Of a DNA stretch of 64,000 bases, positions 1 through 57,445 are shown piece by piece. Source of the DNA: Candidatus Magasanikiibacteriota bacterium (GTDB taxonomy: Bacteria > Patescibacteriota > Patescibacteriia > Magasanikbacterales > UBA922); assembly GCA_016193335.1 (NCBI GenBank), contig JACPSK010000001.1, positions 22,716 through 86,715 of the forward strand. The letters are read 5' to 3'. The translations under genes and the position numbers were made by a program. Position 1 is the stretch's first letter. Each line of letters starts with the position of its first letter. Below the pieces are notes generated by a model that worked only from the letters and a program-made list of their open reading frames with translations, made no database searches and was not told the DNA's origin.

Positions 1-1917
1 AAAGTAATGGCAAATCCCTGTACAAAACTGCTGCCAAACCAAACCAAAAGCCCGCAGGTGATAAGCGTGGAAACATTACCGTCTCGTATAGATGACCAGG
101 CGCGGATAAATCCTTCCTCAATAGAAGTTTTGAGACTTTTGCCAGACCGCAATTCTTCTTTCATCCGCTCAAATATAAGCACATTAGCGTCCACAGCCAT
201 GCCAATGGAAAGAATAAAACCAGAAATTCCAGCCAAGGTGAGCGTTACTCCCATTACTTTAAATATCGCGAGGGTAAGAAAGGAATAAAGAAGCAAAGAT
301 ACGGCAGACAAAAGCCCGGGGAGACGATAGTACAAAACCATAAATAATACAATCAAAACGAGAGAAACAATACCCGCTTTGATACTCTGAGCAAGCGCTT
401 CTGAACCCAAACTGGCGCCAACAGCTTGCTGTGAAATAAGATTTATGGGAATAGGCAAAGCGCCGGCGTTTAATCTCTGGGACAAAAGCCTCGCTTCCTG
501 TATATTAAAACTCCCTGTTATAACGGCCTCGCCGTTTGAAATGGCTGTTTGCACGGTAGGAATGCTGATTGCCTCCCCGTCAAGAAAAATGGCTATGGGA
601 TCGCCCACGTGACGTTTGGTGATTTCTTCAAAGAGTTTCGCGCCTTCGCTGTCAAAACGCAAGGAAACCTGAATGGCGCCGGTGGTCTGTTGAGTAACCA
701 CTTCAGCGCGGTCCAGTTGTTTCCCCGAAAGACCCGTGGCTTTCCATTCACTTTGCGGAGGGACGATATCTGATTCGGATTTGCTGCGAACCAAAATACG
801 CCATAATTCATATTCTTTTTTCGTTTCTTCATTTGTCTTGTATATAATATGGTATCCGAACTGAGTTTCCACCGGCCCGATAATGTCACCGGTATTCGCG
901 TCAAAAACCGCCTGTTCAAAGGCCGGAACCATGGCGCCTTTTTTGAAAAAACCCAAAGATCCTCCTGTATTTTTATTTGATTCATCGCTCGAATTCTCAG
1001 CGGCCAACTCAGCAAAATTTTCCCCGTTCGCTTTATTGTAAATTTCCTCTGCCTTTTTAAAGGCTTCTTCTTTTGTATACACCGGATTTGAACAATTTTG
1101 AGCCCCCAAATAACAAATCAATATATGGCTGGCTTCCACTTCTTTTTGTCCTTCCCGCTCTTCTCCTCTCTTTAAGACATTGTAACCATCAAAACTTTTT
1201 ATCAATTCGGTACTGGTATCTTGGTTCTTAGACTTCTCAGCCCATTCATAGAGCGGAGCAGAAAGCGGAGTCTTTGGCAGATATTGTAAATATCCGCCAT
1301 TATTTTTGCTTGTTTGGTCTTCTGAGACTTCTCTGGCCACTTGTTCAAAATCTTCACCCTTTGCTATCCTTTTTAAAATACTGTCAGCGCGTTTTTCCGC
1401 GTCTTTATTGAATTCTTCCAACTGTTTGCGCTCTTCTTCTGTAAGAGAACGAGGAGCTTCAGTATTTTCTTCTTTAAATTCAAGAATCGGAGTTTCTCCT
1501 ATCATGTCTATAGCTTGGTGCACGTTGTTCAGGCCGGGAAGTTCTACCAGCAGCCTGTGACTGCTGCCAACCTGGGTGGTTTGTATGTTCGGTTCTCCTA
1601 CTCCCATACCATTTACTCTACGCTCTATCACGTCTCGTACACCTTCTACCGCGTCCTTGCGGCCGGAATCTTCTATGTTTTGCAAGTCTGCTTCATAGAC
1701 CAGGCTCACTCCGCCCTGAAGGTCAAGCCCAAGTTTAAAATTATTGTTCGGGAGCTCCGGCAGAGCTATTCCTATGTATGTTTTTGTCCACGAAACCGCT
1801 TTGTTGTAGAACCCGGGCATAACAAAAATACTCGAGGCCAAAAGCAGAGCGAATATGCCCACTATCCCCCAACGCAATTTTGATCTGATTTGTGCGGCGC
1901 TTTTTTTGTCTGCCATA
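1..1917 (-). CDS. secD: Protein translocase subunit SecD, C-terminally truncated by window edge; periplasmic head carries one complete and one partial parvulin-type PPIase-like segment
   Basis: Manual minus-strand translation from ATG at 1917: MADKKSAAQIRSKLRWGIVGIFALL (TM1), FKLGLDLQGGVSLVYEAD, LLVELPGLNN, IGETPILEFKEE, then ASHILICY...NTGGSLGFFKKGAMVPAFEQAVFDANTGDIIGPVETQFGYHIIYK (PpiC-like), then base domain and TM block ISGFILSIGMAVDANVLIFERMKEELRSGKS. The ORF is open at position 1, so it is absent from the ORF track. Confidence 0.8.
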
Positions 1918-2196
1918 AATTATCGAGGAGTAGTGTAGCAAAGCGAACAGAAGAGGTCAATATCTTTATGCACATAGATATATCAAGCTTTTAAATGCGT
2001 AAATTATTGACAAAACCGAGATTTTGTGATATAGTGTAATGTCGCAAAATTTGGGTTTTGTGAATTTATTTGTGTCCATCCCTTTACAATATATTTTTAG
2101 AAATTCTGCGAAGCCGGCCCGCTTCGCTCTCGCATTCGTTTTCGAATTTATTAAGAATATATTGTAAAGGGGTGGACTCTGATTCATTGAACGATT

Positions 2197-2709
2197 TTGT
2201 TGATGAGAGGGGGAAGGCAAATGGAGAGATCATCAGATAATGATCGCACTGAGTTCACTCGGCGACGCGGAACTTTGGTCTCTATGACCAAGTTTACGGC
2301 CGAGGACGAGGCCGATCATTACAACGACTTTAATGTCGGCGCCACCATGCTTGTAGCCCGAGACACGCCTCACGGGCACCGTGAATATGCCACATTCTCC
2401 GCGGCCAACATGAAGCCGCACCGGGATGTGGTGAAGCTCTGCGCCGAGCGCATTGCCTTTGCCTGCCTGCGAAAGGCGCGCTGGACCCACGTGGTAGCGA
2501 TCGTGGTTTGCGGCCCTCCTCGTAAGGAGGATACCACGGCCACCCTGTGGCCTTGCGAGGTCTGCCGGCCCTGGCTCGACGCCATGCCGGAAATTGATGA
2601 TGATACCATCCTCCTTTGTGCCCACAACGGCACTGAAGAAGAGATGAGCTGGGGCAAGCTCATGGAGCTACACCCCGAAGATCGACGCTGTTCAGACCAC
2701 GACGAATAG
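2197..2709 (+). CDS. CDA-fold zinc deaminase-like protein (cytidine/blasticidin-S deaminase type, C-A-E ... P-C-x-x-C) on a high-GC island
   Basis: Motifs CAERIAF and PCEVCRPW preceded by a beta-strand FNVGATMLV. GC and GC3 much higher than flanks. Likely true start at MERSS (2221). Confidence 0.55.
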   Translation: MLMRGGRQMERSSDNDRTEFTRRRGTLVSMTKFTAEDEADHYNDFNVGATMLVARDTPHGHREYATFSAANMKPHRDVVKLCAERIAFACLRKARWTHVVAIVVCGPPRKEDTTATLWPCEVCRPWLDAMPEIDDDTILLCAHNGTEEEMSWGKLMELHPEDRRCSDHDE

Positions 2710-2728
2710 CGCAAAAACCGCCAGCCAC

Positions 2729-4177
2729 TTACTGTGTTCCCGAAAATTCGGGGTCAGAGTAAGGAGCTAAAGGCGGTTTTTGTTTTAATAGCCAGACGGT
2801 AAACAAAGAACCTCTGCCATATTCACTTTCACAGCTTATCTTTCCTTTAAAATCTTTTTCCACCAATTCTTTGCTTATGGAAAGACCAAGTCCGGTTCCT
2901 TTGAAGGGCTCTTTGGTGGTAAACAGAGCTTCGAATATTTTGTGGCGTATTTCAGGTAAGATTCCCGAGCCATTGTCTCTTATTCCTATTTTTACATATT
3001 CGGCTTCCTCGTTTATATGAATCTTTATCTTTCTTTTTTGCACCGTATTCTCTACAAAAGCATCTATGGCGTTTGACAAAAGATTGCTTAATATCTGATT
3101 GCATTCCAAAGGATTGCCAAAAATCTGTTCCTGATAATCTGCAAATATAATGATTTCTATATTTTTTTCCTTAATTCTATGATCCAAGACATCCAAAATA
3201 GAATAAATTTCTTCAGCGACAGAAAAATATTCTCTTACGTTTTGTTTTGAAAGCTGTTTTTGAACTCCATTTACAAAATACTCCATCCTCTCGGCATTTT
3301 TCATGGCTCGAGCCAGTGTATTTTGTATCTCACGATTTGTTTCGGTGTCAGTTTTTTGGGCCTGTCTTAGATTGAGCGACAAAGCCATGAGCGGATTGAT
3401 GAAACTGTGAAAATATCCTGAAGCCGAACGTCCAAACTCAGCGAAACGATATAATTGAGACAATTTTTCAAGCTGGGCTTGCTTGAGCTCCTGAGTTCTT
3501 TCTTGGATTTTGATTTCCAATAAATCTCGTTCTTGTCTCAACTCAGCCTCACTTTTTCGAGCTCGCGCGAGTGACCGTTCTATTTCTCTGTTGTAGAGCC
3601 ATGAAACGATAAATATAATAAAAAAGGTAACCGCGCTTAAGAAAGAATCGCCATATCTGAACACTTCATCTTTCCAATAGAGCTGAGGCGGACTGATGTT
3701 TTGAATTTGTATAAAACTGAGAGTCAATAAGACAGATAAACATAAAACCGACATAAAAATGGAAAAACGGGTACCCACCAAAATTCCTGACATGATAATA
3801 ATTAAGGCATACATCAAGAGACCTTGAGGCAAATCCGCGCCCCAGGCGTACAAGGAATAACTGCTCGGTACGAAATATAAAAAAATAAAAAGATACGAAG
3901 ACAAAAAATGATAGCCCTTGCGTGACAAGATATATAAAACAACAAAGACACCCAGCAATGACGGAATGAGCCACCATGGCGCTCCCCTGCCCTCAATTTC
4001 GCCATGGAGCTTTATTATTCTGTAGAGCACATAGAGACCTGCCGAGCTCAGGAGAATAATGGATCCTGAAAGCAGGACATTGAGAATAAATTCACGGCGT
4101 CTGATATCCTCAGTGCTTCCTCGAGGTTTGATGCGTCTCATAAGGTTTCCCAAAAAAAGAGATGCGTAGGTTTGCAT
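2729..4177 (-). CDS. Sensor histidine kinase (multi-TM N-terminus, HisKA H-box, HATPase_c)
   Basis: FHSFINPLMAL H-box; GTGLGLSISKELVE G2 box; several hydrophobic helices at N-terminus. Confidence 0.8.
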   Translation of the reverse strand: MQTYASLFLGNLMRRIKPRGSTEDIRRREFILNVLLSGSIILLSSAGLYVLYRIIKLHGEIEGRGAPWWLIPSLLGVFVVLYILSRKGYHFLSSYLFIFLYFVPSSYSLYAWGADLPQGLLMYALIIIMSGILVGTRFSIFMSVLCLSVLLTLSFIQIQNISPPQLYWKDEVFRYGDSFLSAVTFFIIFIVSWLYNREIERSLARARKSEAELRQERDLLEIKIQERTQELKQAQLEKLSQLYRFAEFGRSASGYFHSFINPLMALSLNLRQAQKTDTETNREIQNTLARAMKNAERMEYFVNGVQKQLSKQNVREYFSVAEEIYSILDVLDHRIKEKNIEIIIFADYQEQIFGNPLECNQILSNLLSNAIDAFVENTVQKRKIKIHINEEAEYVKIGIRDNGSGILPEIRHKIFEALFTTKEPFKGTGLGLSISKELVEKDFKGKISCESEYGRGSLFTVWLLKQKPPLAPYSDPEFSGTQ

Positions 4178-4241
4178 TCAAGTATATGGTTAACCCCGAT
4201 AAAATCGGAGATTTGATCCCCACAGGGACTCATTCTACACG

Positions 4242-4282
4242 AAATTCCCCGCGCATGGAAAAACCGGCGCGGGGAATTTTCG
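4242..4282. terminator. GC-rich hairpin (aattccccgcgc...gcgcggggaatt) downstream of the polyprenyl synthase gene
   Basis: Perfect 12-bp inverted repeat seen in sequence. U-tract is weak. Confidence 0.35.
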
Positions 4283-4602
4283 AATAAATGCTAATTTTTA
4301 TGGTGCCCAGGGATTCATGGCAATGGATTTTGAGAAAGCGATTTTTTTGATATTCGCCTTGTTTCTCGCGTCCTTTGACATGAGGATTTCCCGAATGATT
4401 TCACTCATATAGTATATGTAAAAATGAATAAAATATTTACATCGACCTTTTTGGATAAACGGCTCACACTGCCCGCTGTATATGGAGGAACATTGTTTAT
4501 ATCTTTATAAACTTCTTCAAAATAAAATTTTTTGTATCTCAGAGGAAAAAAAGGCACAAATACATAGAGCCCTGGCTCTAACTTAACGGCAATATGAACA
4601 TT

Positions 4603-5571
4603 TCAACAATCAGCAATATAATCGGGTAAAATTTTTAGCAGATCAAACGCTTCTTTCCTATATCTTCTCTTTGAAAGCTCAGACAGACAGGCACGGGATT
4701 TTGTTATCTTCGTTTCGAATATATGCATCCGGTTCTTTGCGATCTTTTTCTTGGATAATTGATCTTCAAATTTTTTGGTGCCAGAGTTTAACGTATATCT
4801 TGCAATATCATCTTTAGTATCCTGAATATCATCTCTGATCTGATACGCAATGCCGCAAGATAGAGCGAATTCAGAAATACAAGAGCGTTCAGCATCTCTT
4901 ATTTTTGAACCGGCACAATACATGCCCAAGCAAAGAGGAAGTTCAAACGAATAATGCGCGGTTTTTAATGCGACGATTTTTTGATTATCTAAAATCTGTT
5001 TCTTGTTCACCTGAAAAAAAATATCCTGACCCTGGCCAAAAATCGTTTTAACAAGAATCATACTTACAAATTCGAATAAATACCCACTATTTTTTGTTTC
5101 AAAATTCTTTGAACCCAATAATTCAAAAGCCAAAACGCATAGCAAATCTCCGCACAAGATCGCCATCCGCGATCCAAAATATTCTTTTTCTGATGGAGAA
5201 AGACCCCCGAAAAATTGATGCTCCACGAAAGAGTAATGAGCACTCGGCCCGTCTCTTCTCGTCATGCTCCGGTCTATAATATCGTCGTGAATCAATAAAA
5301 AACTGTGGATCAATTCCATTGCTATAGAGGCCTTTAGGGCTTGGGCATTGGCATCTTCTTTGATCAATTCAAAACCCAAGCAAAACAAAAAACTTCTGAG
5401 CCGAGCCCCGCCGGAATCATGGAGCCGCTCTATTTCATTGAAAAAAAACGGCGAGACTTCAATATCAGCGTAACGATTTCTACATTCTGAAATAAATGTT
5501 TTATAAAGAGGATCAAAGTTTGCTTTATGCGCCGATAAAGCATCTTGGAATAATTTTCGTCCCTCGCTCAT
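4603..5571 (-). CDS. Polyprenyl (isoprenyl) diphosphate synthase, trans-IPPS family
   Basis: First Asp-rich motif LIHDDIIDRSMTRRDGPSAH and second motif QIRDDIQD. Confidence 0.8.
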   Translation of the reverse strand: MSEGRKLFQDALSAHKANFDPLYKTFISECRNRYADIEVSPFFFNEIERLHDSGGARLRSFLFCLGFELIKEDANAQALKASIAMELIHSFLLIHDDIIDRSMTRRDGPSAHYSFVEHQFFGGLSPSEKEYFGSRMAILCGDLLCVLAFELLGSKNFETKNSGYLFEFVSMILVKTIFGQGQDIFFQVNKKQILDNQKIVALKTAHYSFELPLCLGMYCAGSKIRDAERSCISEFALSCGIAYQIRDDIQDTKDDIARYTLNSGTKKFEDQLSKKKIAKNRMHIFETKITKSRACLSELSKRRYRKEAFDLLKILPDYIADC

Positions 5572-5693
5572 ATTTCAATATATAACATTAATTCTACAGA
5601 CGCATTATAAAAATTCGGAATTAATTTTTTCTAAACTTGATAAAGATTTAGATTCCGGGATTAAATTCTTGCAGTCCCATTTTTCCGCAAACA

Positions 5694-5734
5694 AAAAACC
5701 CCGTCCGGCAAATCCGCCGGACGGGGTTCTTCTT
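5694..5734 (-). terminator. Rho-independent terminator downstream of the high-GC gene 6017..7003
   Basis: ccccgtccggc...gccggacgggg hairpin followed by a T-run on the minus strand (uuuuuuguuugc). Confidence 0.6.
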
Positions 5735-6016
5735 AAATACACTATGCGAGTTACAGAGATTTCGACAACATAAATTGCTATTTCCCTTCGAACAAATCCG
5801 TTTGGCTTGCTTATTTCATTCGCCTTCTTCACGGCAGAGTGAAAAAATTCATGCCACTATTTCTTATACTGTGTTTAAGAAGTCTGTCAGTGCGCGGCCT
5901 GACCTTCGAGATCCTCCTTGGGGATCGCCCGCGCGCGAGTAGAGAACGTGGAAAGAACGGAAGGCTAGGCGCGAGGCGCGCCTAGGGGTGGAAGGAGCGG
6001 AGCCGAGGGCCGGGGC

Positions 6017-7003
6017 CTACTGGAGGAAGCCCCAGGCGTAGCCGTTCATCGTCGCGATGACGGGCTGGCCGCTCTGGGTCACGGCGATCAGCCAGGTCCC
6101 GGCCGGGAGCTCGTAGCGCATGTCGGACTTCTGGCCCGTGGTGACGTCGATGACGTCGATGATCGCCCCGGACTCGGAGTCGCCGTTGACGCCGAGCATC
6201 TCCTCGGTGGCCGAGTTCCAGGCCAGCGCGCTGTAGGAGACGTGCTGGCCGTTGTTCCAGGCCTTCTGGAGGTCCGCGATCCCGTTGGCGCTCAGGTAGA
6301 CCGTCTTGCCGTCGTTGAGCTCGGCGAGCACGGACACCTTCTTGCCGCCGAAGGCCTCGAGGGAGATGACCTGCGTGACGTCGTCCTGGGTGAAGCCCGC
6401 GCCGAGCCGCGAGATCGTCTTCGCGTCGATCTCGATGATGACCGGCTTGGCCTCGTTGCCGATACCGGCCATGTAGAGCCGGTGGCTGCTGCGGTCCTGG
6501 GCCACCGCGGTGACGCTGCGGAGGCCGAGGCGAGCCATGGCGGTCTCGGTCTTGTCCTCGAGCTGGCCGTCGTCCTTCTTGCGGAAGAACTGGACCTTGA
6601 CCTCGCCGCTCGTGCGGAAGGCGTCCACGTTGAAGGTCTGGCCGCTCTCCAGCTGGCCGAGACCGCTCTGCTCGATGTGCTCCGAGAGCTCGGCCGAGGT
6701 GACGGACTGGTCGTCGATCCCGAGGGTCACGATCACGAGGTCGTCCTTCGTGTAGGTCCGCCGGATGCGCGCGGCGATCGTCTCCTCGGGGCTGGCCGTC
6801 TTGCCGTCGCCGAGGTCGATCTGACCGAGCTTGTAGAGCGAGCCGGGGACCATCTCCTCCGTCGTGCCGTAGCCGAAGACGGTGAGCCGGTGGTCGAGGT
6901 TGCCCAGCCCCATGAGGGCCAGGCCGCGCTGGACATCGATGTCCACCTTGTTGATGCGACGACCCGTGATGGGCGCCGCGCTCTCGAGCATGAACGTGGT
7001 CAT
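6017..7003 (-). CDS. Hypothetical protein encoded on a high-GC (about 67%) island, no recognisable domain
   Basis: Only frame with balanced amino-acid composition (K, T, I, Y present). Strong GC3 bias. Other listed ORFs in this region are Arg/Ala-rich alternative-frame artefacts. Confidence 0.55.
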   Translation of the reverse strand: MTTFMLESAAPITGRRINKVDIDVQRGLALMGLGNLDHRLTVFGYGTTEEMVPGSLYKLGQIDLGDGKTASPEETIAARIRRTYTKDDLVIVTLGIDDQSVTSAELSEHIEQSGLGQLESGQTFNVDAFRTSGEVKVQFFRKKDDGQLEDKTETAMARLGLRSVTAVAQDRSSHRLYMAGIGNEAKPVIIEIDAKTISRLGAGFTQDDVTQVISLEAFGGKKVSVLAELNDGKTVYLSANGIADLQKAWNNGQHVSYSALAWNSATEEMLGVNGDSESGAIIDVIDVTTGQKSDMRYELPAGTWLIAVTQSGQPVIATMNGYAWGFLQ

Positions 7004-7164
7004 GATTTCTCCGTTTCCTAGTCATCAGACGAATCCCGCAGCGGGATGCCGCGAGAACGCGCGCAAGTATACGCTCCACAGAAATCAAGGTCAAGCCGTG
7101 CTGTGGATAAACACAAGCCTATCCAATAGCTCAATTGCGCGAAAAAGCCCAAAACACTCCATAG

Positions 7165-7193
7165 ATTGATTTTCGCGCTTTTTTCTGATATGA
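7165..7193 (+). promoter_or_regulatory. Sigma70-like promoter TTGATT-17-TATGAT upstream of mraY
   Basis: Hexamers with 17-nt spacer read directly, 16 bp upstream of the mraY ATG. Confidence 0.4.
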
Positions 7194-7208
7194 TGGCTCT
7201 CAGTCTAT

Positions 7209-8339
7209 ATGAGCATAGCTTTGGATTCTATTTTCAGTTTGCGTACTATTATCGGATACGCCATTTTTGCTTGTATTTTTGCTTTCCTTTGGTCCCCTCT
7301 TCTAAGCAAATTTCTATACACCTACAATCTCACCAGACGGCCTGAATACGACGCCACTTTGGCTATGGGCGCGAGACGCGGCAAAGTGGGAGTTCCTGTG
7401 ATGGGTGGTTTATTGGTCATTGTAACGGTGGCGGTTTTAACCGCAAGTTTTAATTGGGAACGAAAATTTACTTGGGTCCCCATCGGAGTAATGCTCCTAT
7501 CAGCCCTTCTCGGCGGTATTGATGATGTAATGAATATCTACGGCCATCAAAGAAGATCGAGAAAAATCAAACATATTTTACGCTTAATCAAAGTGCACAA
7601 AGAATTGAGGCAAAGAATCTGGCTTTCTATTACTCTCCCTTGGTCTATCTTCAAAAGAAGCTCGCTCTGGCTGGGCTCGCATCCGGGCAAAGGCATTCAT
7701 GTGCATGAAAAACTCCTTCTCCAATTTCTCGCCGGTTCCATTACCGCGTGGTGGATATATGTAAAACTTGGCGAACACTGGCGCACCATATTCATTCCTT
7801 TCGACGGATATATCAATATCGGGTGGTGGATTATTCCTCTCATTATTTTTTTTGTGATGTTCACGGCCAACGCGGTAAACGTGGCTGACGGCATGGACGG
7901 TTTGGCAGGCGGCTCGCTTATTAGCACCTTTGCGGCGCTCGCTCTTCTAAGCTGGCTCGAAGGATTCCAGGAAATCGCCATTCTCAACGCCACTACCGTA
8001 GGCGCGCTCATTAGCTATACGTATTTTAATATCAAGCCGGCCCGCTTCCAAATGGGAGACGTGGGGTCGCTCGGCCTGGGATCCCTCCTTGCCATCAACG
8101 CCATAGTCATAAATAAAATGCTGCTTCTTCCTTTTTTGGGTTTTATTTTTTATCTCGAACTCTTGAGCGTAATCATACAAGTGCTCGGCAGGCACCTTTT
8201 GAGAAGACGAATATTTAAAATGGCGCCCATCCACCATCATTTCGAAATACGAGGTTGGAGCGAAGAAAAAACCGTCATGCGTTTTTGGATTTTGCACGCG
8301 GGCTTTGTGCTCCTTGGAGTTTGGATAGCTTTATTGTAA
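7209..8339 (+). CDS. mraY: Phospho-N-acetylmuramoyl-pentapeptide transferase
   Basis: NAVNVADGMDGLAGG, PIHHHFE and multi-TM architecture. Carries an insertion (KIKHILRLIKVHKELRQ...). Confidence 0.9.
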   Translation: MSIALDSIFSLRTIIGYAIFACIFAFLWSPLLSKFLYTYNLTRRPEYDATLAMGARRGKVGVPVMGGLLVIVTVAVLTASFNWERKFTWVPIGVMLLSALLGGIDDVMNIYGHQRRSRKIKHILRLIKVHKELRQRIWLSITLPWSIFKRSSLWLGSHPGKGIHVHEKLLLQFLAGSITAWWIYVKLGEHWRTIFIPFDGYINIGWWIIPLIIFFVMFTANAVNVADGMDGLAGGSLISTFAALALLSWLEGFQEIAILNATTVGALISYTYFNIKPARFQMGDVGSLGLGSLLAINAIVINKMLLLPFLGFIFYLELLSVIIQVLGRHLLRRRIFKMAPIHHHFEIRGWSEEKTVMRFWILHAGFVLLGVWIALL

Positions 8340-8348
8340 ATTTTTAAG

Positions 8349-9011
8349 ATGTATCTTTCTTGGGGAACACATACCATTCAGTCTTTCAGAGAACATGAAA
8401 TAAATGCTCTATACGACGAGGGCTATCTGTTTACGCGACTTGAAAAAGGAATCATGAACAAAACAAGAAGCATACGGATAAAATGTCCTGATTTTTCGTG
8501 GAGCAGTGAAAATAGGAGAATCTTAAAAAAGACCGAAAGCTTGATGCTCAAAGAGCACCGGATACCTTATTCGGGGTATGATTGGCGAATCGCCAAAATG
8601 GCAAAAAATTTTTATGACACAAAATTTGGCGCAAAAACATTCAGCGCGAACAAAATAAAAGAATTGTTGACAAACAAAAAAACTACCAACTTCAATTTGT
8701 TGCTGGAATTTTATATAAATACCAAAAATACCGCAGAGGCTCTCGGCTACGCCATTTGCGCGGAAACAGAGGAACTCATACACTATGCCTATCCTTTTTA
8801 CAGACTTGATTCTGAAACATGTAATATGGGAATGGGCATGATGCTCCAAGCCATTGAATGGGCCCGTGGAAAAAATAAAAAATATATATATCTCGGTTCT
8901 GCCCAGCGCCCCGGGGATATTTACAAACTCCAATTCAAGGGTTTGGAGTGGTATGACGGACAAAAATGGCAAAGCGATGAAAACGCCTTAAAAACTCTGC
9001 TCAAAAACTAA
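8349..9011 (+). CDS. Arginyl/leucyl-tRNA--protein transferase family protein (ATE_C/Bpt-like, GNAT-like fold)
   Basis: C-terminal HYAYPFYRLDSETCNMGMGMMLQAIEWARGKNKKYIYLGSAQ...YKLQFKGLEWYDGQKW resembles the ATE_C/Bpt signature (FYDP..SlG...LGlpYlYLGY...YK..f.P.E). Confidence 0.45.
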   Translation: MYLSWGTHTIQSFREHEINALYDEGYLFTRLEKGIMNKTRSIRIKCPDFSWSSENRRILKKTESLMLKEHRIPYSGYDWRIAKMAKNFYDTKFGAKTFSANKIKELLTNKKTTNFNLLLEFYINTKNTAEALGYAICAETEELIHYAYPFYRLDSETCNMGMGMMLQAIEWARGKNKKYIYLGSAQRPGDIYKLQFKGLEWYDGQKWQSDENALKTLLKN

Positions 9012-9015
9012 ATCT

Positions 9016-9468
9016 ATGGATACCTTATCACCAGAAAAACGTGCCGAACAGGAGAGAGAAAGTATCGTCAGTTCTATTCTGGCCTCCGCTGAAAGAGAAC
9101 CCGCAGATAAAGACATCCCAAGCCTTGTGGTCTTCCGCTATGGCAGCAAAGAATTGGATCTGGTCTATTTTGCCGACAAAGGAACCTTCAGCACTGCGGT
9201 TGAGGGGTATGAAGATAGAGAGAGAAAACCAGAGGAAACACGTTTCTTGTATATGGCGGCGAAGAGAGCTATGCAAGAAATCGCGGATCGCTCTCAAACT
9301 GAAATAGAATACACTCTCGAAACCTCAAACGAAAAAATAGTCCCATTCGCCCAAAGTCACGGAAAAGAGATTTTTCGTTGGGATTCTGAAACGAAGGAAG
9401 AATTTGAAATAAAAAAGCGAGGAAAAGTTGATATTTGGTATTTCAAAAAAACATTCAAGCCACTTTGA
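9016..9468 (+). CDS. Hypothetical acidic protein
   Basis: ORF with good coding texture in an operon-like arrangement. No motif recognised. Confidence 0.4.
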   Translation: MDTLSPEKRAEQERESIVSSILASAEREPADKDIPSLVVFRYGSKELDLVYFADKGTFSTAVEGYEDRERKPEETRFLYMAAKRAMQEIADRSQTEIEYTLETSNEKIVPFAQSHGKEIFRWDSETKEEFEIKKRGKVDIWYFKKTFKPL

Positions 9469-9474
9469 TAAACT

Positions 9475-10875
9475 ATGGCGAGTATGAAAGTACATTTTAT
9501 AGGTATTTGCGGAGTGGCCATGAGCGCGCTCGCGAGCGCGCTCAGCAAGAAGGGATACGCTGTCAGCGGCAGCGACAAAGGATTCTTCCCTCCCATCTCA
9601 ACCCATCTCAACAAGGCGGGCATTATATTTTATCCGGGATGGCATGTAGAAAAAATGACAAAACAGGGAAATCCTGATCTTGTCATAGTGGGAAACGTCG
9701 CCGGTTCTGAAAATTCGGAATTGCTGTACGCGAAAAAACAAAAACTGAAATGCCTTTCATATCCCGAACTCATAGCAGAGCTTTTCGTAAAATCGCGGTC
9801 AATCGTCTGTGCCGGCACCTACGGAAAAACAAGCAGTAGCGCGCTTTTGGCCTGGATTTTTAGACAAGCGGGATATAAACCAAGCTATATGTTCGGGGGT
9901 TTGGCTTTAAACGACATGGAAGCGGCAGAATTGAATGAAAGTAATTGGAGCATTCTCGAAGGAGACGAATACAAAACCGCGCGTTGGGATGATTCAGCAA
10001 AATTTTTTCATTATGCCCCTACTCATCTTGTGTTAAGCGCTATTGAGTGGGATCACGCTGATATATATAAAGACAAAAAAAGTTATACAGACGTTTTTAA
10101 AAAACTTTTGTCATCAATCCCAAAGACAGGGCTGGTCTTGGCCGCTTCAGGAAAAGCTTCTATAGACGAAGTCTTGACCCAAACAAAAGCAAAAATACTG
10201 AGATACGGACCGGATCCCAGGGCTGATTATCAATATCTGAATCTATCGGTCAGTGCTCACGGTATGTCTTTTGAAATTCGCCAAGACGCAGAAAATCACT
10301 ATGTCAGAAGTCCCTTGATCTACGCCTATATGGCTGAAAATATTACCGGATGTTTCGCGCTCTCACGCGAACTAGGAATTGAACCGGCCAAAATACTCGA
10401 ATCCATTTTTTCATTCAAGGGTCTAAAACGGAGGATGGAAAAACGTTATGAAGGCGAAGTTACCCTGATTGATGACATAGCTCACTCTCCGGTAAAAGCC
10501 CAATCAGTACTCAAAAATCTGAGACACATTTACAAAGGAAAAATATACGCGGTGTTCGAACCAAATACCGGAAATCGGATGCCAAGCATGGCAGAATCCT
10601 ATCATAGAGCCTTCAAAAACGCTGACACGGTCGTGATACCTCGCCTCAGTATTCTGAAAAAAAATAAAGAATCTTCGGAAGAAGCATTCAACGCGGCAAC
10701 TCTGGCCAATCTTATAGCCCAAACTCACCCTGACGTTTTCGCGTTGGAAGATGATGACAGGCTTATTGATTTTCTGGTTGAAAGAACGAGGCCGGGAGAC
10801 GCCATTATATTTCTTGGAAGTCATGGCTTCCGCGGAATGATAGAAAAAACCATTGAAAAAATAAAGCGGCCATGA
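9475..10875 (+). CDS. mpl: Mpl-type Mur ligase (UDP-N-acetylmuramate:L-alanyl-gamma-D-glutamyl-meso-DAP ligase-like; MurC family)
   Basis: HFIGICGVAMSALA, GSDKGFFPPIST, GTYGKTSSSALLAWI and EGDEYKTARWDDSAKFFHYAPTHLVLSAIEWDHADIY closely parallel E. coli Mpl (ICGTFMGGLA, ANVYPPMST, EADEYDCAFFDKRSKFVHY...EFDHADIF). Confidence 0.7.
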   Translation: MASMKVHFIGICGVAMSALASALSKKGYAVSGSDKGFFPPISTHLNKAGIIFYPGWHVEKMTKQGNPDLVIVGNVAGSENSELLYAKKQKLKCLSYPELIAELFVKSRSIVCAGTYGKTSSSALLAWIFRQAGYKPSYMFGGLALNDMEAAELNESNWSILEGDEYKTARWDDSAKFFHYAPTHLVLSAIEWDHADIYKDKKSYTDVFKKLLSSIPKTGLVLAASGKASIDEVLTQTKAKILRYGPDPRADYQYLNLSVSAHGMSFEIRQDAENHYVRSPLIYAYMAENITGCFALSRELGIEPAKILESIFSFKGLKRRMEKRYEGEVTLIDDIAHSPVKAQSVLKNLRHIYKGKIYAVFEPNTGNRMPSMAESYHRAFKNADTVVIPRLSILKKNKESSEEAFNAATLANLIAQTHPDVFALEDDDRLIDFLVERTRPGDAIIFLGSHGFRGMIEKTIEKIKRP

Positions 10876-10884
10876 TGGCCGCGT

Positions 10885-11052
10885 TTACTTCCCTTCTTCC
10901 ACGATCTCAGTTTCCACCGACCCATCATCCATAAGCTTTGTTACTCCAAGCGTAATCCCGCAATGGTTGCATTCTATGACCATTTCCGGTTTCAGGTTTG
11001 GGTAGTTTGAGAGGTCTACTTGATTTTTGCATTCAGGACAGGTAAGATTCAT
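10885..11052 (-). CDS. LysW-like zinc-ribbon protein (55 aa) with acidic C-terminal tail
   Basis: Manual translation MNLTCPECKNQVDLSNYPNLKPEMVIECNHCGITLGVTKLMDDGSVETEIVEEGK. The CPEC...CNHCG spacing and acidic tail resemble the amino-group carrier LysW. It is under 60 aa, so absent from the ORF track. Confidence 0.45.
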   Translation of the reverse strand: MNLTCPECKNQVDLSNYPNLKPEMVIECNHCGITLGVTKLMDDGSVETEIVEEGK

Positions 11053-11159
11053 AGACTATTTATAAATTTATAATTTTTAAGTTAGAATTTTTAGTTGGAT
11101 TCTTGCGGCCTTTTTAACAAAACCATTGTAACACAGGAGAGAAACAAACTCAAATCTTT

Positions 11160-12056
11160 ATGAAAACACCCCAGCAATCATACCCTGAACTCGCCGCGGC
11201 TCTGGGTGTAGAAGAACTCTATCTAAAACGTGAAGACCTGCACAAATATCGTTCTCACAAAGGACGTTCCATACCCCTCATGATCAAACGATATCTGCGA
11301 GAAGGAAAAAATCATTTTGTCATATCATCCTCCGGCAACGCGGCTCTAGCCGCGGCCTTGACCGTGGAAAACCACAATAGAAACAACCCCGAAAAAACAA
11401 TCAGCTTGGATATTCTTGTAGGAACCGGCATCCAGATAGAAAAATTAAAAACACTAAATGAAATAGCGAATCAAGGAATCGGCATAAACATTAAGACCCT
11501 TGAGCGTCCCAAGCAAAGCGCCTTTCAAATGGCCAAGGAAGGCTCTGCTATTTTTTTACGCCAATCAACTGATGATCTCGCTTTGGAAGGCTATCTTTCA
11601 TTGGCAGATGAGCTATCCAAGATACCAAAACTGGAAGCAGTCTTTATACCAACCTCATCCGGAACCACCGCACAGGCTCTTGGCGAAGCTTTCGCAAGAA
11701 TGTCCAGATCCATCCAAATACACGTGCTCCAAACGAGCCGCTGCCATCCTATCGCGGAAATTTTTGACAAGGCCAACGAAGAGAACAAAAAAACGCCCTC
11801 CACATCAAAAGCAAAAGCCGTAGTGGACAAGGTGGCTCATCGCAAAAATAAAGTGGTGTACCTGGTCCAAGCAAGCGGCGGTTCGGGCTGGATACTCACG
11901 AACAATGAAATAGAAGAAGCACAAAATCTAGTCCGCGAAAAAACCGGTCTCTCAATTTCCGGAAACAGCGCCTTGTCTGTGGCAGGACTCAAAAAAGCCC
12001 TCGCTTCCGGATGGAATTGCAAAGGAACCGTGGTTTGTCTTATCACCGGAGCTTAG
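11160..12056 (+). CDS. PLP-dependent enzyme, fold-type II (threonine synthase/cysteine synthase-like)
   Basis: LYLKREDLHKYRSHKGRS corresponds to the K-REDL...SFKDRG PLP-lysine motif. GGSGWIL glycine loop. Confidence 0.6.
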   Translation: MKTPQQSYPELAAALGVEELYLKREDLHKYRSHKGRSIPLMIKRYLREGKNHFVISSSGNAALAAALTVENHNRNNPEKTISLDILVGTGIQIEKLKTLNEIANQGIGINIKTLERPKQSAFQMAKEGSAIFLRQSTDDLALEGYLSLADELSKIPKLEAVFIPTSSGTTAQALGEAFARMSRSIQIHVLQTSRCHPIAEIFDKANEENKKTPSTSKAKAVVDKVAHRKNKVVYLVQASGGSGWILTNNEIEEAQNLVREKTGLSISGNSALSVAGLKKALASGWNCKGTVVCLITGA

Positions 12057-12057
12057 C

Positions 12058-12762
12058 TCAAGACAAACTTTTCTGAGCTATACTTATAATATTGTTCCCT
12101 TTCTCTTTATCCGAAGGTGTTCCTTTTCTTATAAAATAATGTTCTTTTAATACAAAGCCGGCATCCACTATAAGGGCTCGAAGTTCATCCAGAGTAAAAC
12201 CATGGTAATAGCGTTCTCCCAATATCTTGCCACTTGCGTCCAACCATGGAACAATAAAATCAGTTTTCGATTCTTCCAAGGTCCACTTTCCTTTTTCCAC
12301 GTTTTTTCGCGCTGAATCTGAATACATATTCCAATTGGTCATAAGAAGCATTCCTCCGGGCCGCAAAATCCTGTATATCTCGCTTAGTGTTTTTCTTCTG
12401 TCTTCAGTATTTGGCAGATGATGAAAAGAAGCCACCGAAAGAGCCAGATCAAAAATCCGATCCTCAAATGGCAGAGAACGCATGTCCGCCACCATAAATC
12501 TTGCTCCGGGGACCCGTGCTCGCGCTATGTCCACAAGCTTTTCGCTTTGATCTATCCCCGTATAATTGATACCTTGATTTTTATCGCATAACTGGTATAC
12601 TCTCCCATTCCCAGAGCCAATGTCCAAGATGGAATATCCATCTCTTATAAAAGACCTAAAAACCTCAAGATCCTCCCACAGATCATTTCTTGAATCAGAA
12701 AAATAAACGGCTATTTCATTGTATACCTGCTTATTGTGTTTTACCAAGTCTGAGGAGCGCAT
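12058..12762 (-). CDS. Class I SAM-dependent methyltransferase
   Basis: Motif I ILDIGSGNGR, and PGGMLLM. Confidence 0.75.
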   Translation of the reverse strand: MRSSDLVKHNKQVYNEIAVYFSDSRNDLWEDLEVFRSFIRDGYSILDIGSGNGRVYQLCDKNQGINYTGIDQSEKLVDIARARVPGARFMVADMRSLPFEDRIFDLALSVASFHHLPNTEDRRKTLSEIYRILRPGGMLLMTNWNMYSDSARKNVEKGKWTLEESKTDFIVPWLDASGKILGERYYHGFTLDELRALIVDAGFVLKEHYFIRKGTPSDKEKGNNIISIAQKSLS

Positions 12763-12772
12763 ATATTCAGTT

Positions 12773-14488
12773 ATGATGGAAACAAAAAGCTTGCTAAGCG
12801 AAAAACAATTGAATACTGTCCTTGATCATATCATCACAAAAAAACCGAAAACCCGGTCTGATTTTGAATCGGCAAAACGAATTATATGCGGACGCATTGG
12901 CTGCGCTCAACCGCCAAATCGTTTTCTGCTCTCAGCCTACCAAAAACTCCTCAAAAAGAAAAGCATATCTTCCTCCACCTTTCTTGAGCCTTTTCTCAAA
13001 AAAGCAGAAGTACGCTCTATTTCCGGCATTGCCGTGGTTACTTCTCTTATAAAACCATACCTCTGCCCTGGCAAATGCGTGTATTGTCCTACTGAAGTTC
13101 GCATGCCAAAAAGTTATATTGCCACAGAACCGGCGGCCGCCAGAGCTTTGCGACTGAATTTTTCCCCTTATGAACAAATGAAACGGCGTGTGGAAATGCT
13201 CGAGATAAACGGACATAACACCGATAAAATAGAATTTATCATAAAAGGAGGGACCTGGAACGCTTACCCCATAAAATATCAATACTGGTTTATCTTGGAA
13301 TCTTTCAAAGCTTGTAATAATGTTAAAAGAAAAAAACCGACGAATCCTACGGAAGAACTACACTGGGCCTCTCGACCCTTGAAAGAACTTCAGAACGCCC
13401 TCAAAAAAGAACAAGCATACAATGAAAAAGCAAAACATCGCATTATAGGTCTTACGCTTGAAACCCGGCCAGACGCTATCGCCCCAAAAACAATATTCCA
13501 CATGCGGGAACAAGGATGCACGCGCATTGAGCTTGGGTTGCAAGCGCCGGACGACCGGATATTGAAGCTGGTCAATCGCGGACATACCGTAGATGATTTT
13601 CGCAAAGCCATTTGGCTCCTTCGAGAAGCCGGCTTTAAAGTGGACCTGCATATGATGCCGGATCTGCCGGGAACTACGCCAAAGCACGACGTGGAAATGT
13701 ACAAATTCTTATTTGAAGATCCTGCTTTGAGGCCTGACATGGTAAAAATATATCCCTGCACGGTCATCAAATCAGCCGAATTATTTACCTGGCTCGAAGA
13801 TGGCCGATACAAACCCTATAGTGGAAAAGAATTATTCGAGGCGCTCCTTGAGATGAAGTTGTCTACTCCGCCCTGGTGCCGAATTTCAAGATTGATCAGA
13901 GACATCCCGGCAAATGAAATCGAGGCTGGCAACAAAATAACGAACCTCCGTGAAGAATTGAGTACCGAACTTGCCCGGCGAGGTCTTTCCTGCGTTTGTA
14001 TACGTTGCCGCGAAATAGGGAGACAAAAACACAATATACCAGAAGACAGCCCCAGTCTCTTTGTTGACTTTTATGAAACCATAGGGGGCAGAGAATATTT
14101 TATCAGTTTTGAAGATTCTTCCCGAAAGGCCATACATGGGTTTTTGCGCTTGCGCGTTCCAAATAAATTCGCTGAAAAGGCTGGCTTTCTTCCTCCAACA
14201 TATCTGACAAACACAATAACAGAGCTCAAAAGCCTTTTGCCCGGAATCAAAAACAGCGCCTTTGTCCGAGAACTCCATGTGTACGACACGGCGCTTCGCA
14301 TTGGGATACGACAAAAAAATCTTTCTCAACACAAAGGCTTTGGCGCTCGTCTCCTCCATGAAGCCGAAACTATCGCCAGACAGCAAGGTTTTAAAAGCAT
14401 ATCCGTTATTTCAGGCGTCGGAGTACGAGCCTATTATCGTTCCAAGGGTTACAGAAAAACAGGCAGCTATATGACGAAAAAACTCTGA
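12773..14488 (+). CDS. Elp3-like radical SAM + GNAT protein (tRNA wobble-uridine modification type)
   Basis: CPGKCVYCP radical-SAM cysteine cluster, then C-terminal GNAT (HKGFGARLLHEAETIARQQGF). Track ORF starts at 12719 and overlaps the upstream gene, so the start is taken at the internal MMETKS. Confidence 0.7.
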   Translation: MMETKSLLSEKQLNTVLDHIITKKPKTRSDFESAKRIICGRIGCAQPPNRFLLSAYQKLLKKKSISSSTFLEPFLKKAEVRSISGIAVVTSLIKPYLCPGKCVYCPTEVRMPKSYIATEPAAARALRLNFSPYEQMKRRVEMLEINGHNTDKIEFIIKGGTWNAYPIKYQYWFILESFKACNNVKRKKPTNPTEELHWASRPLKELQNALKKEQAYNEKAKHRIIGLTLETRPDAIAPKTIFHMREQGCTRIELGLQAPDDRILKLVNRGHTVDDFRKAIWLLREAGFKVDLHMMPDLPGTTPKHDVEMYKFLFEDPALRPDMVKIYPCTVIKSAELFTWLEDGRYKPYSGKELFEALLEMKLSTPPWCRISRLIRDIPANEIEAGNKITNLREELSTELARRGLSCVCIRCREIGRQKHNIPEDSPSLFVDFYETIGGREYFISFEDSSRKAIHGFLRLRVPNKFAEKAGFLPPTYLTNTITELKSLLPGIKNSAFVRELHVYDTALRIGIRQKNLSQHKGFGARLLHEAETIARQQGFKSISVISGVGVRAYYRSKGYRKTGSYMTKKL

Positions 14489-50991: not shown

Positions 50992-51034
50992 AAAATCAAA
51001 CTAAACTATCCCCTTTGCGATCTCATATTTTATT

Positions 51035-52537: not shown

Positions 52538-52556
52538 AATATTAAAAATGCTTTAT

Positions 52557-53402: not shown

Positions 53403-53495
53403 TAAAATATTGACTTATGTAATAAAAATTTCTCAGATGTACCTCTGCTCGCGTCAAGTATATAAACCTTTTATGTTTAAGACAAGAAAGAACCT

Positions 53496-54101: not shown

Positions 54102-54234
54102 AAACTCATATAATTAATCGGCCAACATATAAAATTACAATCAATTTCACAGCCTTTCTGTAGCAGACTGAGGGAGTAAGGGATACATTTTTTCATGACA
54201 AGTCGCATTGACTTTAGATTCAGTATATCCCAGA

Positions 54235-55749: not shown

Positions 55750-55884
55750 AAAACAGTTTGAAATTTGTTAGTCATCCAGCTTAGAATTCCACTAAATGGG
55801 TTACCTTACCTGGAAAAATGTTAACGCGGGTTTTCGAAAAAACTGATACAAGGTTCATTTTACGATTTTCTCGCATCGCGAAAC

Positions 55885-57411: not shown

Positions 57412-57445
57412 ATGAACATAATGGTATACAATATGTTTGACAAAA

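Follow-up and report, generated by a model that had tools for sequence, protein, structure and literature searches.

A sharply bounded, very GC-rich single-gene segment in the AT-rich genome of a Candidatus Magasanikbacteria bacterium

Genes and features at the locus

The window, i.e. the whole stretch of 64,000 nucleotides that we analysed, belongs to the AT-rich genome of a Candidatus Magasanikbacteria bacterium, a tiny organism that lives uncultivated in groundwater. Between a polyprenyl synthase gene (4603..5571, minus strand) and mraY, divergently transcribed, it contains a very GC-rich segment of 1.2 kb that carries a gene of 328 residues. In the following this segment is referred to as the island. 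The features of the locus are:

5694..5734, minus strand: intrinsic (rho-independent) terminator with an 18-bp stem, then UUUUUUGUUUG; inverted repeat I3
5735..5891, minus strand: AT-rich spacer and presumed 3' UTR, GC 0.369; host-like, outside the putatively imported segment
5892..5906, no strand: left arm of the 15-nt imperfect inverted repeat I9, GCGCGGCCTGACCTT; begins at the left composition boundary
5892..6016, minus strand: GC-rich non-coding 3' part of the island, GC 0.704
6017..7003, minus strand: orphan coding sequence of 328 aa, start codon ATG, stop codon TAG; MBI2989589.1 / HYY51_00150
7009..7012, minus strand: Shine-Dalgarno sequence GGAG, 5 nt before the ATG and within the GC-rich segment, read from the sequence (...CTAGGAAACGGAGAAATCATG)
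7034..7056, minus strand: 9-bp hairpin in the GC-rich 5' leader, from the fold of 6995-7075 (minus strand); not significant, with a z of only -1.2
7066..7094, minus strand: sigma-70-type promoter-like site TTGACC-17-TATACT, 10/12 consensus matches
7087..7101, no strand: right arm of the 15-nt inverted repeat I9, AAGGTCAAGCCGTGC; overlaps the -35 box

Composition, boundaries and assembly integrity

An earlier note on this DNA had described an abrupt jump to about 67% GC between roughly 5880 and 7030. Such a jump is indeed present: maximum-likelihood change points fall at 5892 and 7064, and the segment between them has a GC of 0.669 compared to 0.429 for the rest of the window. In 300-nt windows the GC rises from 0.37 (5551-5850) to 0.64-0.68 (5851-7050) and returns to 0.43 (7051-7350). 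For the remaining windows of 1171 nt a mean of 0.429 with a standard deviation of 0.028 was found, such that the island lies about 8.6 SD higher; their maximum of 0.591 corresponds to a further island. The dinucleotide distance delta* between island and host was 0.278 (host chunks: 0.064 ± 0.024, maximum 0.126), and the tetranucleotide correlation with the host was -0.24 vs 0.85 for host chunks. These values rule out the uniform tetranucleotide signature that the note had named as a refutation. The non-coding flanks of the island are GC-rich as well, with 0.70 on the 3' side and 0.61 on the 5' side, while host spacers have 0.27-0.40. GC-richness is thus a property of the DNA segment and not of codon choice.

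The second refutation that had been named was a chimeric assembly. Logan per-run contigs matched the window at 100% identity, and five of them (L001, L003, L004, L005, L089) spanned both junctions, while a single junction was spanned by L002/L087, L088 and L090. A further contig (L086, from SRR4343435) spanned the right junction at 99.93% identity with both mismatches outside the island. Unusual tails of L004 and L005 were considered as variants and rejected as Nextera adapter. Overall, 8 sequencing runs, each assembled independently, gave exactly the same junctions, and no empty-site variant was seen among them. The island was fixed in all assemblies seen, including that of SRR4343435, a run from another accession series.

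Codon usage of the orphan gene was equally unlike that of the host. GC1, GC2 and GC3 of the coding sequence were 0.611, 0.419 and 0.979, respectively, and its third positions comprised C 202, G 120, T 7 and A 0 times, i.e. not a single codon ends in A. All of the approximately 55 host ORFs have a GC3 of 0.36-0.51. For the highly expressed host genes of S9, L13, L17, RpoA, S4, S11 and S13 it amounts to 0.39-0.42, and translational selection was rejected as source of the high GC3 on these grounds.

Taken together, a chimeric or contaminated assembly, or alternatively a native gene of high expression with the host's codon bias at an extreme, is effectively refuted as an explanation of the island. 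The abruptness of the GC change is the only point in favour of either, apart from the preference of some host genes, e.g. mraY, for CTC and GGC. The chimera is contradicted by the identical junctions, and the codon bias by the GC3 of the host ribosomal protein genes as well as by the GC-rich non-coding ends of the island.

The orphan gene and its product

The frame 6017..7003 on the minus strand is the sole credible one of the island, as the earlier note had proposed from its GC3 bias and the normal amino-acid composition of its product, both of which we confirmed. The remaining long ORFs, a 370-aa ORF on the minus strand and a 259-aa ORF on the plus strand, are, as had also been stated, shadow frames; both are rich in Arg, Pro, Gly, Ala and Leu, and the plus-strand ORF is the in-register antisense frame. 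Since GC-rich DNA has few stop codons and these shadow frames are open as well, the open orphan ORF by itself proves nothing.

The encoded protein has a mass of 35.4 kDa and a pI of 4.8 and contains no Cys, no TM segment and no signal peptide. Internal repeats were absent (best diagonal score 25 vs a shuffle mean of 25.6). The 35-kDa product is predicted to be acidic and rich in strands, and to reside in soluble form in the cytoplasm. Single-sequence AlphaFold2 gave no confident fold, with a pLDDT of 38 at full length and of 52 for residues 85-215, and a Foldseek search of this poor model against the PDB returned zero matches at E <= 0.001. A match to [AG]x4GK[ST] at AELNDGKT was seen by eye and rejected as a chance pattern that lacks a Walker B motif and a Gly-rich loop. 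Avoidance of RNase or restriction motifs (ACA, GATC, others) did not go beyond the effect of GC3 itself. Other GC-rich islands of the lineage encode small metabolic or salvage-type enzymes, which is why we would guess, with low confidence, that the product is an accessory enzyme or a binding protein.

Search for relatives and a donor

The orphan status of the 328-aa protein, claimed previously, was borne out by extensive searches. An exhaustive phmmer (HMMER) search of 1.84 billion representatives and a word-indexed search of 5.8 billion clusters both recovered the orphan protein itself only. One additional match, a repetitive Bacteroidota-style protein with an E of 2e-4 over four stretches, was rejected as a spurious repeat-protein match. 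For the whole protein and three overlapping pieces, Pfam yielded sub-threshold noise only (NMB0315_dom_I at E 0.006-0.02, PCSK9_C1 at E 0.02). NCBIfam, PHROGs and PADLOC gave zero matches, and the best match of a PDB sequence search was an alginate lyase at E 0.75. Neither a tblastn search against phages and plasmids nor a scan of IMG/VR found anything, and neither the window nor the fetched loci contain a paralog. Overall, no homolog was found among approximately 15 billion proteins, including those of same-sample assemblies. Had the gene been transferred very recently from an organism living alongside, a trace of it would be expected among these.

From codon usage the earlier note had suggested an Actinobacteria-like donor. 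Such a donor is unproven: closest homologs in Actinobacteria were not found, nor were homologs in any other taxon, and what is left is a resemblance of codon usage. The pattern of a high-GC Gram-positive (GC3 > 0.9, a preference for C-ending codons, residual GGT and CGT) is present in the gene, yet it is common to any genome of >70% GC.

Expression signals and non-coding parts

The gene had been described as followed by a clean rho-independent terminator of its own. The terminator at 5694..5734 stood up to closer inspection: as expected for an intrinsic terminator, it consists of a stable GC-rich hairpin followed by a U-tract, with a folding free energy of -34.7 kcal/mol (z = -7.5) that was equalled by 0 of 200 shuffles. 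A simple pattern scanner overlooked it. What did not stand is its assignment to the island. It is placed 283 nt 3' of the orphan stop codon in host-type, AT-rich DNA of 37% GC, outside the island and past the 157-nt AT-rich spacer. This spacer is closed by the 15/17 inverted repeat I4 (5729-5745 / 5866-5882), and the RNA fold of 5685-5895 on the minus strand has a z of -5.5, in part due to the terminator. The spacer contains no Rfam family and has no second copy in the window; more generally, Rfam found no family in 5400-7400 and only tRNAs across the whole window.

Within the GC-rich 3' part a perfect 10-bp palindromic hairpin at 5966-5988 (CCTAGGCGCG-AGG-CGCGCCTAGG) is followed by CTTCCGTTCTTTCC, which is C/T-rich on the coding strand. 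The hairpin is present in both the MFE and the centroid folds, while 5892..6016 overall folds no better than shuffles. Hairpin and C/T-rich tract may be a relic of a donor terminator. An 11-nt motif on the 3' side (TCCGTTCTTTC), common to this island and to a different GC-rich island in the relative L007, was rejected as too weak, with matches of up to two mismatches occurring about as often as expected by chance. On the 5' side, GC-rich DNA starts directly 3' of the predicted -10 box.

Judged by these signals, the gene would form a monocistronic unit that is read from a host-type promoter (TTGACC-17-TATACT, 7094-7066) through a leader of about 55 nt and the GGAG ribosome-binding site into the 328-aa ORF. 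The transcript would continue into the AT-rich, structured 3' UTR and reach the strong intrinsic terminator at 5734-5694, which would end it and insulate the polyprenyl synthase gene located 3' of it.

Imported DNA could, alternatively, be dead cargo that is neither expressed nor useful, with an ORF that is open merely because GC-rich DNA rarely makes stops. We give this little chance. The overlapping shadow ORFs are indeed open, AlphaFold finds no confident fold, and all copies are identical, which makes a test for purifying selection impossible. Low single-sequence pLDDT is, however, usual among orphans, and 1.2 kb of junk would be unexpected in the small, gene-dense genomes of CPR bacteria (the contig has 687 kb here). 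Moreover, a promoter-like site of host type and a Shine-Dalgarno sequence at good spacing precede the gene, the strong predicted terminator follows it, and none of the assemblies seen lacks the island.

Tests for mobility

Hallmarks of mobility were absent. No integrase or transposase was found within ±5 kb of the island. The genes of 5012-13003 contain no integrase or transposase Pfam families, and the ORFs within 1-4600 encode a SecD-like protein, a CDA-like protein and a histidine kinase. No tRNA lies by the island, the nearest being 23 kb off, and its borders carry no direct repeat or target-site duplication. The island also failed to resemble an integron cassette: there is no integrase in the neighbouring genes, it is solitary between housekeeping genes, and, by reading of the sequence, the attC core (GTTRRRY / RYYYAAC) is absent from the 3' hairpin.

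The only boundary structure was the 15-nt inverted repeat (5892-5906 / 7087-7101) with 13/15 matches, a number that was matched by 2 of 500 shuffles and 1 of 300 real-sequence control pairs for a repeat chosen post hoc. It is thus only suggestive. If meaningful, it would define an element of 5892-7101, i.e. a non-autonomous mobile cassette with 15-bp terminal inverted repeats and one passenger gene. The left end of the repeat coincides exactly with the left composition boundary, its right end lies 37 nt past the right one, few controls equal it, and none of the remaining islands has a comparable boundary repeat. We nevertheless consider such a cassette highly improbable, given the lack of a target-site duplication and of a nearby transposase. 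In addition, the test windows were picked after the repeat had been seen, the right arm doubles as -35 box, and, this island apart, neither the window nor the fetched loci contain a copy of the ends (GCRCGGCYTGACCTT).

Comparison with the mraY locus of relatives

Five Magasanikbacteria relatives (L006, L008, L094, L095, L096), with MraY identities of 63-76%, lack a GC-rich island upstream of mraY, while a sixth (L007) carries a different one there. Even the closest relative in this comparison reaches no more than 76% MraY identity, and on the far side the gene order is not conserved. We considered whether the DNA upstream of mraY is an insertion hot spot and did not adopt this idea, as only 1 of 6 relatives has an island there, which may be due to chance.

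We consider it rather probable that a piece of foreign DNA with a single gene, spanning 5892..7064 and possibly reaching 7101, sits in the chromosome of this CPR/Patescibacteria member and is equipped with a host-type promoter, a ribosome-binding site and a terminator. Import is favoured by the sharp GC discontinuity, the foreign signature, the GC-rich non-coding ends and the absence of the island from the mraY loci of relatives. The junctions reproduced in 8 runs, the low GC3 of highly expressed host genes and the failure to find any homolog point in the same direction, and the promoter-like site, Shine-Dalgarno sequence and terminator fit the proposed wiring. The missing donor and the missing mobility hallmarks count against this reading. 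Judged by composition, the gene came in together with its own ribosome-binding site, a leader of about 60 nt and about 125 nt of 3' non-coding DNA with the GC-rich hairpin. The source would have been a bacterium or phage of very high GC (~70% or more) that is as yet unsampled, and the segment would have entered the chromosome through illegitimate or micro-homology recombination, with no dedicated integrase involved.

Comparison with known systems

The island is ordinary in kind and unusual in degree. Like classical genomic islands, it stands out by G+C content, oligonucleotide signature and codon usage and is absent from the locus in relatives. Unlike these, which span 10-200 kb, it holds a single gene and lacks an integrase, a tRNA and direct repeats. 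In the AT-rich, obligate intracellular Lawsonia intracellularis (33% GC genome), 87 GC-rich putative alien genes with modest shifts have been described (Guo & Yuan 2009, PMC2671203). There, too, acquired genes exceed the low-GC recipient in GC and GC3, the reverse of the usual AT-rich transfers. Whereas those genes form a statistical class, here we find one sharply bounded 1.2-kb segment with a GC3 of 0.98 and no homolog in a CPR recipient. Reduced-genome episymbionts are known to gain single accessory genes from divergent sources, as for nrdD and ldh of Saccharibacteria, whose horizontal acquisition was inferred from phylogeny with known homologs (McLean et al. 2020, PMC7427843). The gene studied here has no homolog, and the evidence consists of composition and locus comparison. 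We found no description of GC-rich islands in CPR or Magasanikbacteria in the literature.

Species-specific orphans of prokaryotes have a GC close to that of conserved host genes, and virus-like orphans have a lower one (Vakirlis & Kupczok 2024, PMC11293555). The present gene agrees with this class in that similarity is confined to its own species or population, with zero homologs outside the species, and in that its protein is poorly predicted. It is atypical for the class in lying 24 GC points above the host, which argues for an external origin. Lacking a relative among about 15 billion proteins, it would be among the clearest cases of an orphan with an external origin.

Other GC-rich islands and persistence of GC

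The genome contains at least three GC-rich single-gene islands. The other islands of the lineage encode a cytidine-deaminase-like protein, a stand-alone IMP cyclohydrolase and a member of the phosphoglycerate mutase family as named by NCBI. Island 3 (57652-58368) has a positional ortholog on L092, in a related species sampled in SRR22387949, with a protein identity of 62%, compared to 82-84% for the flanks. Synonymous sites are saturated between the two species (58% identical at 4-fold sites, flanks 50-55%), yet GC3 is 0.87 and 0.93, and 67 of 76 sites carry G or C in both. The ratio of C<->G to GC<->AT differences was 24:8, opposed to 12:54 in the flanks. Similarly, a 75%-identical homolog of the PurH-N island of L007 also forms a GC island between AT-rich flanks. 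Codon preferences are common to the island genes (CTC>=CTG, GCC, GGC, ACC, AGC).

High GC3 need thus not mean recent import, and the notion that an unameliorated composition implies a recent event may be wrong. The fresh transfer implied by the earlier note is weakened accordingly. These data also bear on a native origin, in which the gene would be a long-resident, lineage-specific and fast-evolving one whose GC is maintained in situ by selection for GC at the DNA or mRNA level or by GC-biased conversion or repair. Its orphan status would then result from divergence of the protein beyond recognition and not from recent arrival. Island 3, with its diverged protein, its 4-fold sites diverged like the flanks and its conserved GC, the PurH-N island and the common codon preferences all speak for this possibility. 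We still regard it as unlikely: the gene studied here has no ortholog, positional or other, and five relatives have no GC-rich island in the readable DNA upstream of mraY. A native origin moreover fails to explain how GC-rich DNA with such sharp borders, extending into the non-coding ends, came about. We know of no in-situ mechanism of such strength in bacteria.

It is also conceivable, if quite doubtful, that GC-rich single-gene islands are a maintained gene class in Magasanikbacteria and not fading relics of transfer. A force on DNA or mRNA would keep particular transcribed segments with fast-evolving proteins at 60-70% GC (GC3 0.85-0.98) in genomes of 37-45% GC across speciation, with the present island as the most extreme case. 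Such a force might be a selection for transcripts rich in GC, a GC-biased conversion at hot spots of recombination or a continual re-import from a GC-rich partner organism. If the GC-rich source were the host of these episymbionts, the islands would provide a handle on its identity.

For the preferred import from a foreign source, the transfer may be recent or old: a GC3 of 0.98 would normally mean a very recent event, yet the sister island stays GC-rich across speciation. In the amelioration model of transferred DNA, attributed to Lawrence and Ochman (1997), the age of a transfer is deduced from the degree of compositional decay. Unlike what this model predicts, the sister island does not ameliorate. 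Several single-gene islands, at least one of them GC-rich after synonymous saturation, are thus in conflict with the standard amelioration clock for dating transfers. If imported, a segment with a GC3 of 98% inside a 0.69-Mb genome of 43% GC records contact with a very different organism. For most CPR/Patescibacteria, to our knowledge, neither the host nor the gene flow is known. Islands 1 and 3 carry an upstream TTGACA-17-TATA[GC]T, i.e. the same promoter-like pattern as the island studied here.

Composition and reading frame of island 2

The GC content in 300-nt windows jumps from 0.37 (5551-5850) to 0.64-0.68 (5851-7050) and then returns to 0.43, while the remaining 1-kb bins of the 64-kb window all lie at 0.37-0.51. 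Based on a two-state likelihood, the edges of this GC-rich segment, island 2, were placed at 5892 and 7064, with a GC content of 0.669 inside and 0.429 elsewhere. Windows of the same size elsewhere averaged 0.429 (sd 0.028) and reached at most 0.591, at another island. The dinucleotide distance (Karlin delta*) between the island and the surrounding AT-rich host sequence was 0.278, compared to 0.064 ± 0.024 (maximum 0.126) for host chunks of the same size. The tetranucleotide signature is not uniform either: its correlation with the host was -0.24 for the island and 0.85 for host chunks. The foreign composition claimed in an earlier note on this DNA is thus real and sharply bounded.

The frame proposed there, 6017..7003 on the minus strand, has GC contents of 0.611, 0.419 and 0.979 at the three codon positions, the third being occupied by 202 C, 120 G, 7 T and no A. 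A longer ORF of 370 aa (minus strand) and one of 259 aa (plus strand) were rejected as genes, being shadows of this frame rich in Arg, Pro, Gly, Ala and Leu. Frame 6017..7003, with its extreme third-position GC content (GC3), is the true one. Its codons favour CTC (23) over CTG (6) and include 25 GGC; T-ending codons are limited to GGT (four), CGT, GCT and GAT. We take this pattern to fit highly expressed genes of high-GC Gram-positives without being specific to them.

Presence in separate assemblies

The exact 328-aa protein is present on Logan contigs, each assembled from one sequencing run. Both junctions of the island were crossed at 100% identity by L001 (SRR12113420), L003 (SRR12113384), L004 (SRR12113390), L005 (SRR12113401) and L089 (SRR12113424), and one junction each by L002/L087 and L090 (SRR12113385) and by L088 (SRR12113426). 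L086, from a run of another accession series (SRR4343435), spans the right junction at 99.93%, with both mismatches outside the island. No empty site was seen among the per-run contigs examined. Since separate assemblies reproduce the junctions, the island belongs to the chromosome of the organism, and the assembly chimera considered in the earlier note is effectively excluded. The non-matching tails of L004 (1549-1567) and L005 (1370-1386) are Nextera transposase adapter (CTGTCTCTTATACACATCT), i.e. an artefact of untrimmed reads and not sequence variants.

The encoded protein

The product (MBI2989589.1, locus tag HYY51_00150, on a 686,675-bp contig) has 328 aa, a mass of 35.4 kDa and a pI of 4.8, and lacks Cys. 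It contains no hydrophobic segment (maximum 19-residue Kyte-Doolittle score 0.92), signal peptide or significant internal repeat, and is presumably cytoplasmic. Pfam searches with the whole protein and with pieces gave sub-threshold noise only, NCBIfam, PHROGs and PADLOC gave no match, and a PDB sequence search nothing under E 0.75. In a search of 5.8 billion clusters the protein itself was the sole match. Exhaustive phmmer against 1.84 billion representatives returned, apart from itself, one repeat protein (E 2e-4), which was rejected as spurious. Neither tblastn against phages and plasmids nor an IMG/VR scan gave a match, and the window holds no paralog. AlphaFold2 without alignment reached a pLDDT of 38 over the full length and 52 for residues 85-215; a Foldseek search with this low-confidence model was empty.

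The gene is thus an orphan, with no credible relative in the family, cluster, phmmer, phage, plasmid and IMG/VR searches. The Actinobacteria-like donor suggested previously is unproven: the codon pattern is compatible but non-specific, and no homolog was found. Species-specific orphans normally match the GC content of their host (PMC11293555). In contrast, the GC content of this gene is unlike that of the host, such that it is atypical for its class, which points to an outside source.

Genomic setting and expression signals

The neighbours of the island are ordinary CPR housekeeping genes, and gene-family and tRNA scans revealed no integrase, transposase or tRNA nearby.

Features in and around island 2 (window positions)
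Window start: SecD-like gene, running off the start
2729-4177: histidine kinase
4603-5571 (-): polyprenyl synthase
5734-5694 (-): intrinsic terminator, 18-bp stem, dG -34.7 kcal/mol, z -7.5, followed by UUUUUUGUUUG
5735-5891 (-): AT-rich spacer, 157 nt, 37% GC, closed by a 15/17 inverted repeat (5729-5745 / 5866-5882)
ORF stop to 5892 (-): GC-rich non-coding 3' part, 125 nt, 70% GC
5988-5966 (-): perfect 10-bp palindromic hairpin inside this 3' part, followed by CTTCCGTTCTTTCC
6019-6017 (-): ORF stop TAG
7012-7009 (-): Shine-Dalgarno GGAG, 5 nt upstream of the ATG at 7003
7056-7034 (-): predicted 9-bp hairpin (z -1.2, not significant) in a leader of ~55 nt
7094-7066 (-): promoter-like site TTGACC-17-TATACT, 10/12 consensus matches
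7209-8339 (+): mraY, then an ATE_C/Fem-like gene, a Mur ligase and others

Read along the minus strand, GC-rich DNA begins directly past the -10 box. The terminator, missed by a simple pattern scanner, is a textbook intrinsic terminator, as the earlier note had it, but not the island's own: it sits past the composition boundary at 5892 and the AT-rich spacer and therefore belongs to host-type DNA. Spacer and terminator together fold better than shuffles (z -5.5); the spacer matches no Rfam family, occurs only once in the window and may represent a structured 3' UTR or small RNA. From these signals the gene is predicted to be expressed in the recipient. That it is unexpressed dead cargo we consider quite unlikely. 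An open frame in GC-rich DNA is in itself no sign of selection.

A 15-nt inverted repeat (GCGCGGCCTGACCTT / GCACGGCTTGACCTT, 13/15) lies at 5892-5906 and 7087-7101. Among 500 shuffles two, and among 300 real-sequence control pairs one, gave an equally good match; the test windows were picked post hoc. We regard the repeat as no more than suggestive of a transposon end. A cassette bounded by inverted repeats is very improbable, given that there is no target-site duplication at the edges, no second copy outside the island in the window and fetched loci, and no comparable repeat at the other GC-rich islands.

Related loci and origin of the island

Related loci were fetched via MraY, the nearest genomes having 63-76% MraY identity. 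Five of them (L006, L008, L094, L095, L096), with readable DNA upstream of mraY, carry no GC-rich segment there. The gene upstream of mraY varies among genomes, making this a synteny break point. L007 (LBSX01000001.1, Magasanikbacteria GW2011_GWC2_37_14) carries a different island of 61% GC (5196-5878), placed and oriented like island 2, on the upstream side of mraY and transcribed away from it. Its product, of 197 aa, is a stand-alone IMP cyclohydrolase that corresponds to the N-terminal part of PurH. On L093 a homolog with 75% identity (P0006) again forms a GC island with AT-rich flanks; beyond it, identity drops to about 60% in the next-best relatives. The site may be a hot spot or the match a coincidence; with an island in one of six relatives, a hot spot is not established.

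No simple route other than an external origin leads to a sharply bounded GC-rich segment with non-coding ends that is absent from relatives, and we therefore read island 2 as an imported gene. On balance, the probable source of this single gene is a bacterium or phage of very high GC content that has not been sampled; the gene would have been inserted beside the promoter region of mraY, where a promoter and a terminator of host type frame it. A bacterial or phage source is suggested by the Shine-Dalgarno sequence in the putatively imported stretch. Saccharibacteria are known to acquire single genes (PMC7427843), and GC-richer alien genes occur in the AT-rich reduced genome of Lawsonia intracellularis (PMC2671203). 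Island 2 would be an extreme case of this already described phenomenon, a foreign GC-rich gene in an AT-rich genome.

Other islands and persistence of GC-richness

The window contains at least three single-gene GC-rich islands; island 2 belongs to a class, which alters its interpretation.

Single-gene GC-rich islands
Island 1: CDS 2197-2709 (+), cytidine-deaminase-like (sub-threshold), GC3 0.67
Island 2: CDS 6017-7003 (-), orphan, GC3 0.98
Island 3: CDS 57652-58368 (+), segment 57560-58500, 238 aa, GC3 0.87

Island 1 (58-61% GC) encodes a 170-aa cytidine/dCMP-deaminase-like protein with CAE...PCxxC motifs that stays under Pfam and TIGRFAM cut-offs (E about 1e-3); the exact ORF with its start is absent from a collection of 15 billion proteins. 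The island 3 product is named phosphoglycerate mutase family by NCBI and had no Pfam or NCBIfam match here. All three islands have a TTGAC[AC]-17-TATA[CG]T promoter-like site upstream (2020-2050, 7066-7094, 57430-57460). At islands 1 and 3 the site is located in AT-rich DNA and precedes the start codon by 150-200 nt, so that their leaders would be long. Host-type intrinsic terminators follow islands 2 and 3.

For island 3 a single homolog was found (P0004, 61-62% identity), on Logan contig L092 (CDS 3563-4270, segment 3470-4400), in the same position adjoining PEP-utilizer genes. These flanks share 82-84% protein identity and about 80% DNA identity with the window. The ortholog is likewise GC-rich (66.5% GC, GC3 0.93; flanks 45% GC). 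At 4-fold sites of conserved residues, third bases were identical in 58% for the island 3 pair and 50-55% for the flanks, thus the pair is as diverged as its flanks. Both genes carry G or C at 67 of 76 such sites. Of 32 differences 24 were C<->G and 8 GC<->AT, compared to 12 and 54 in one flanking gene, indicating that A/T-ending synonymous variants do not accumulate. These comparisons suggest that the GC-richness of island 3 is being maintained and does not decay.

Host translational selection was rejected as the cause: GC3 is 0.39-0.42 in the ribosomal protein and RpoA genes of the window and 0.36-0.51 across all ~55 host ORFs, and the islands are GC-rich in their non-coding ends as well. 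Host codon bias is thereby effectively excluded. The behaviour of island 3 supports reading island 2 as a long-resident, fast-evolving gene kept GC-rich in situ; island 2, however, lacks any ortholog, and we regard this reading as unlikely. If island 2 was imported, a neutral amelioration clock would read its GC3 of 0.98 as almost no decay. Judging from island 3, such a clock may fail in this genome, and it is uncertain that the transfer was recent. What might be novel is the persistence in island 3.

Island 3 sits between two of five paralogous PEP-utilizers-domain genes (500-525 aa, 27-32% identical mutually) that form a row at 49471-62037 on the minus strand.
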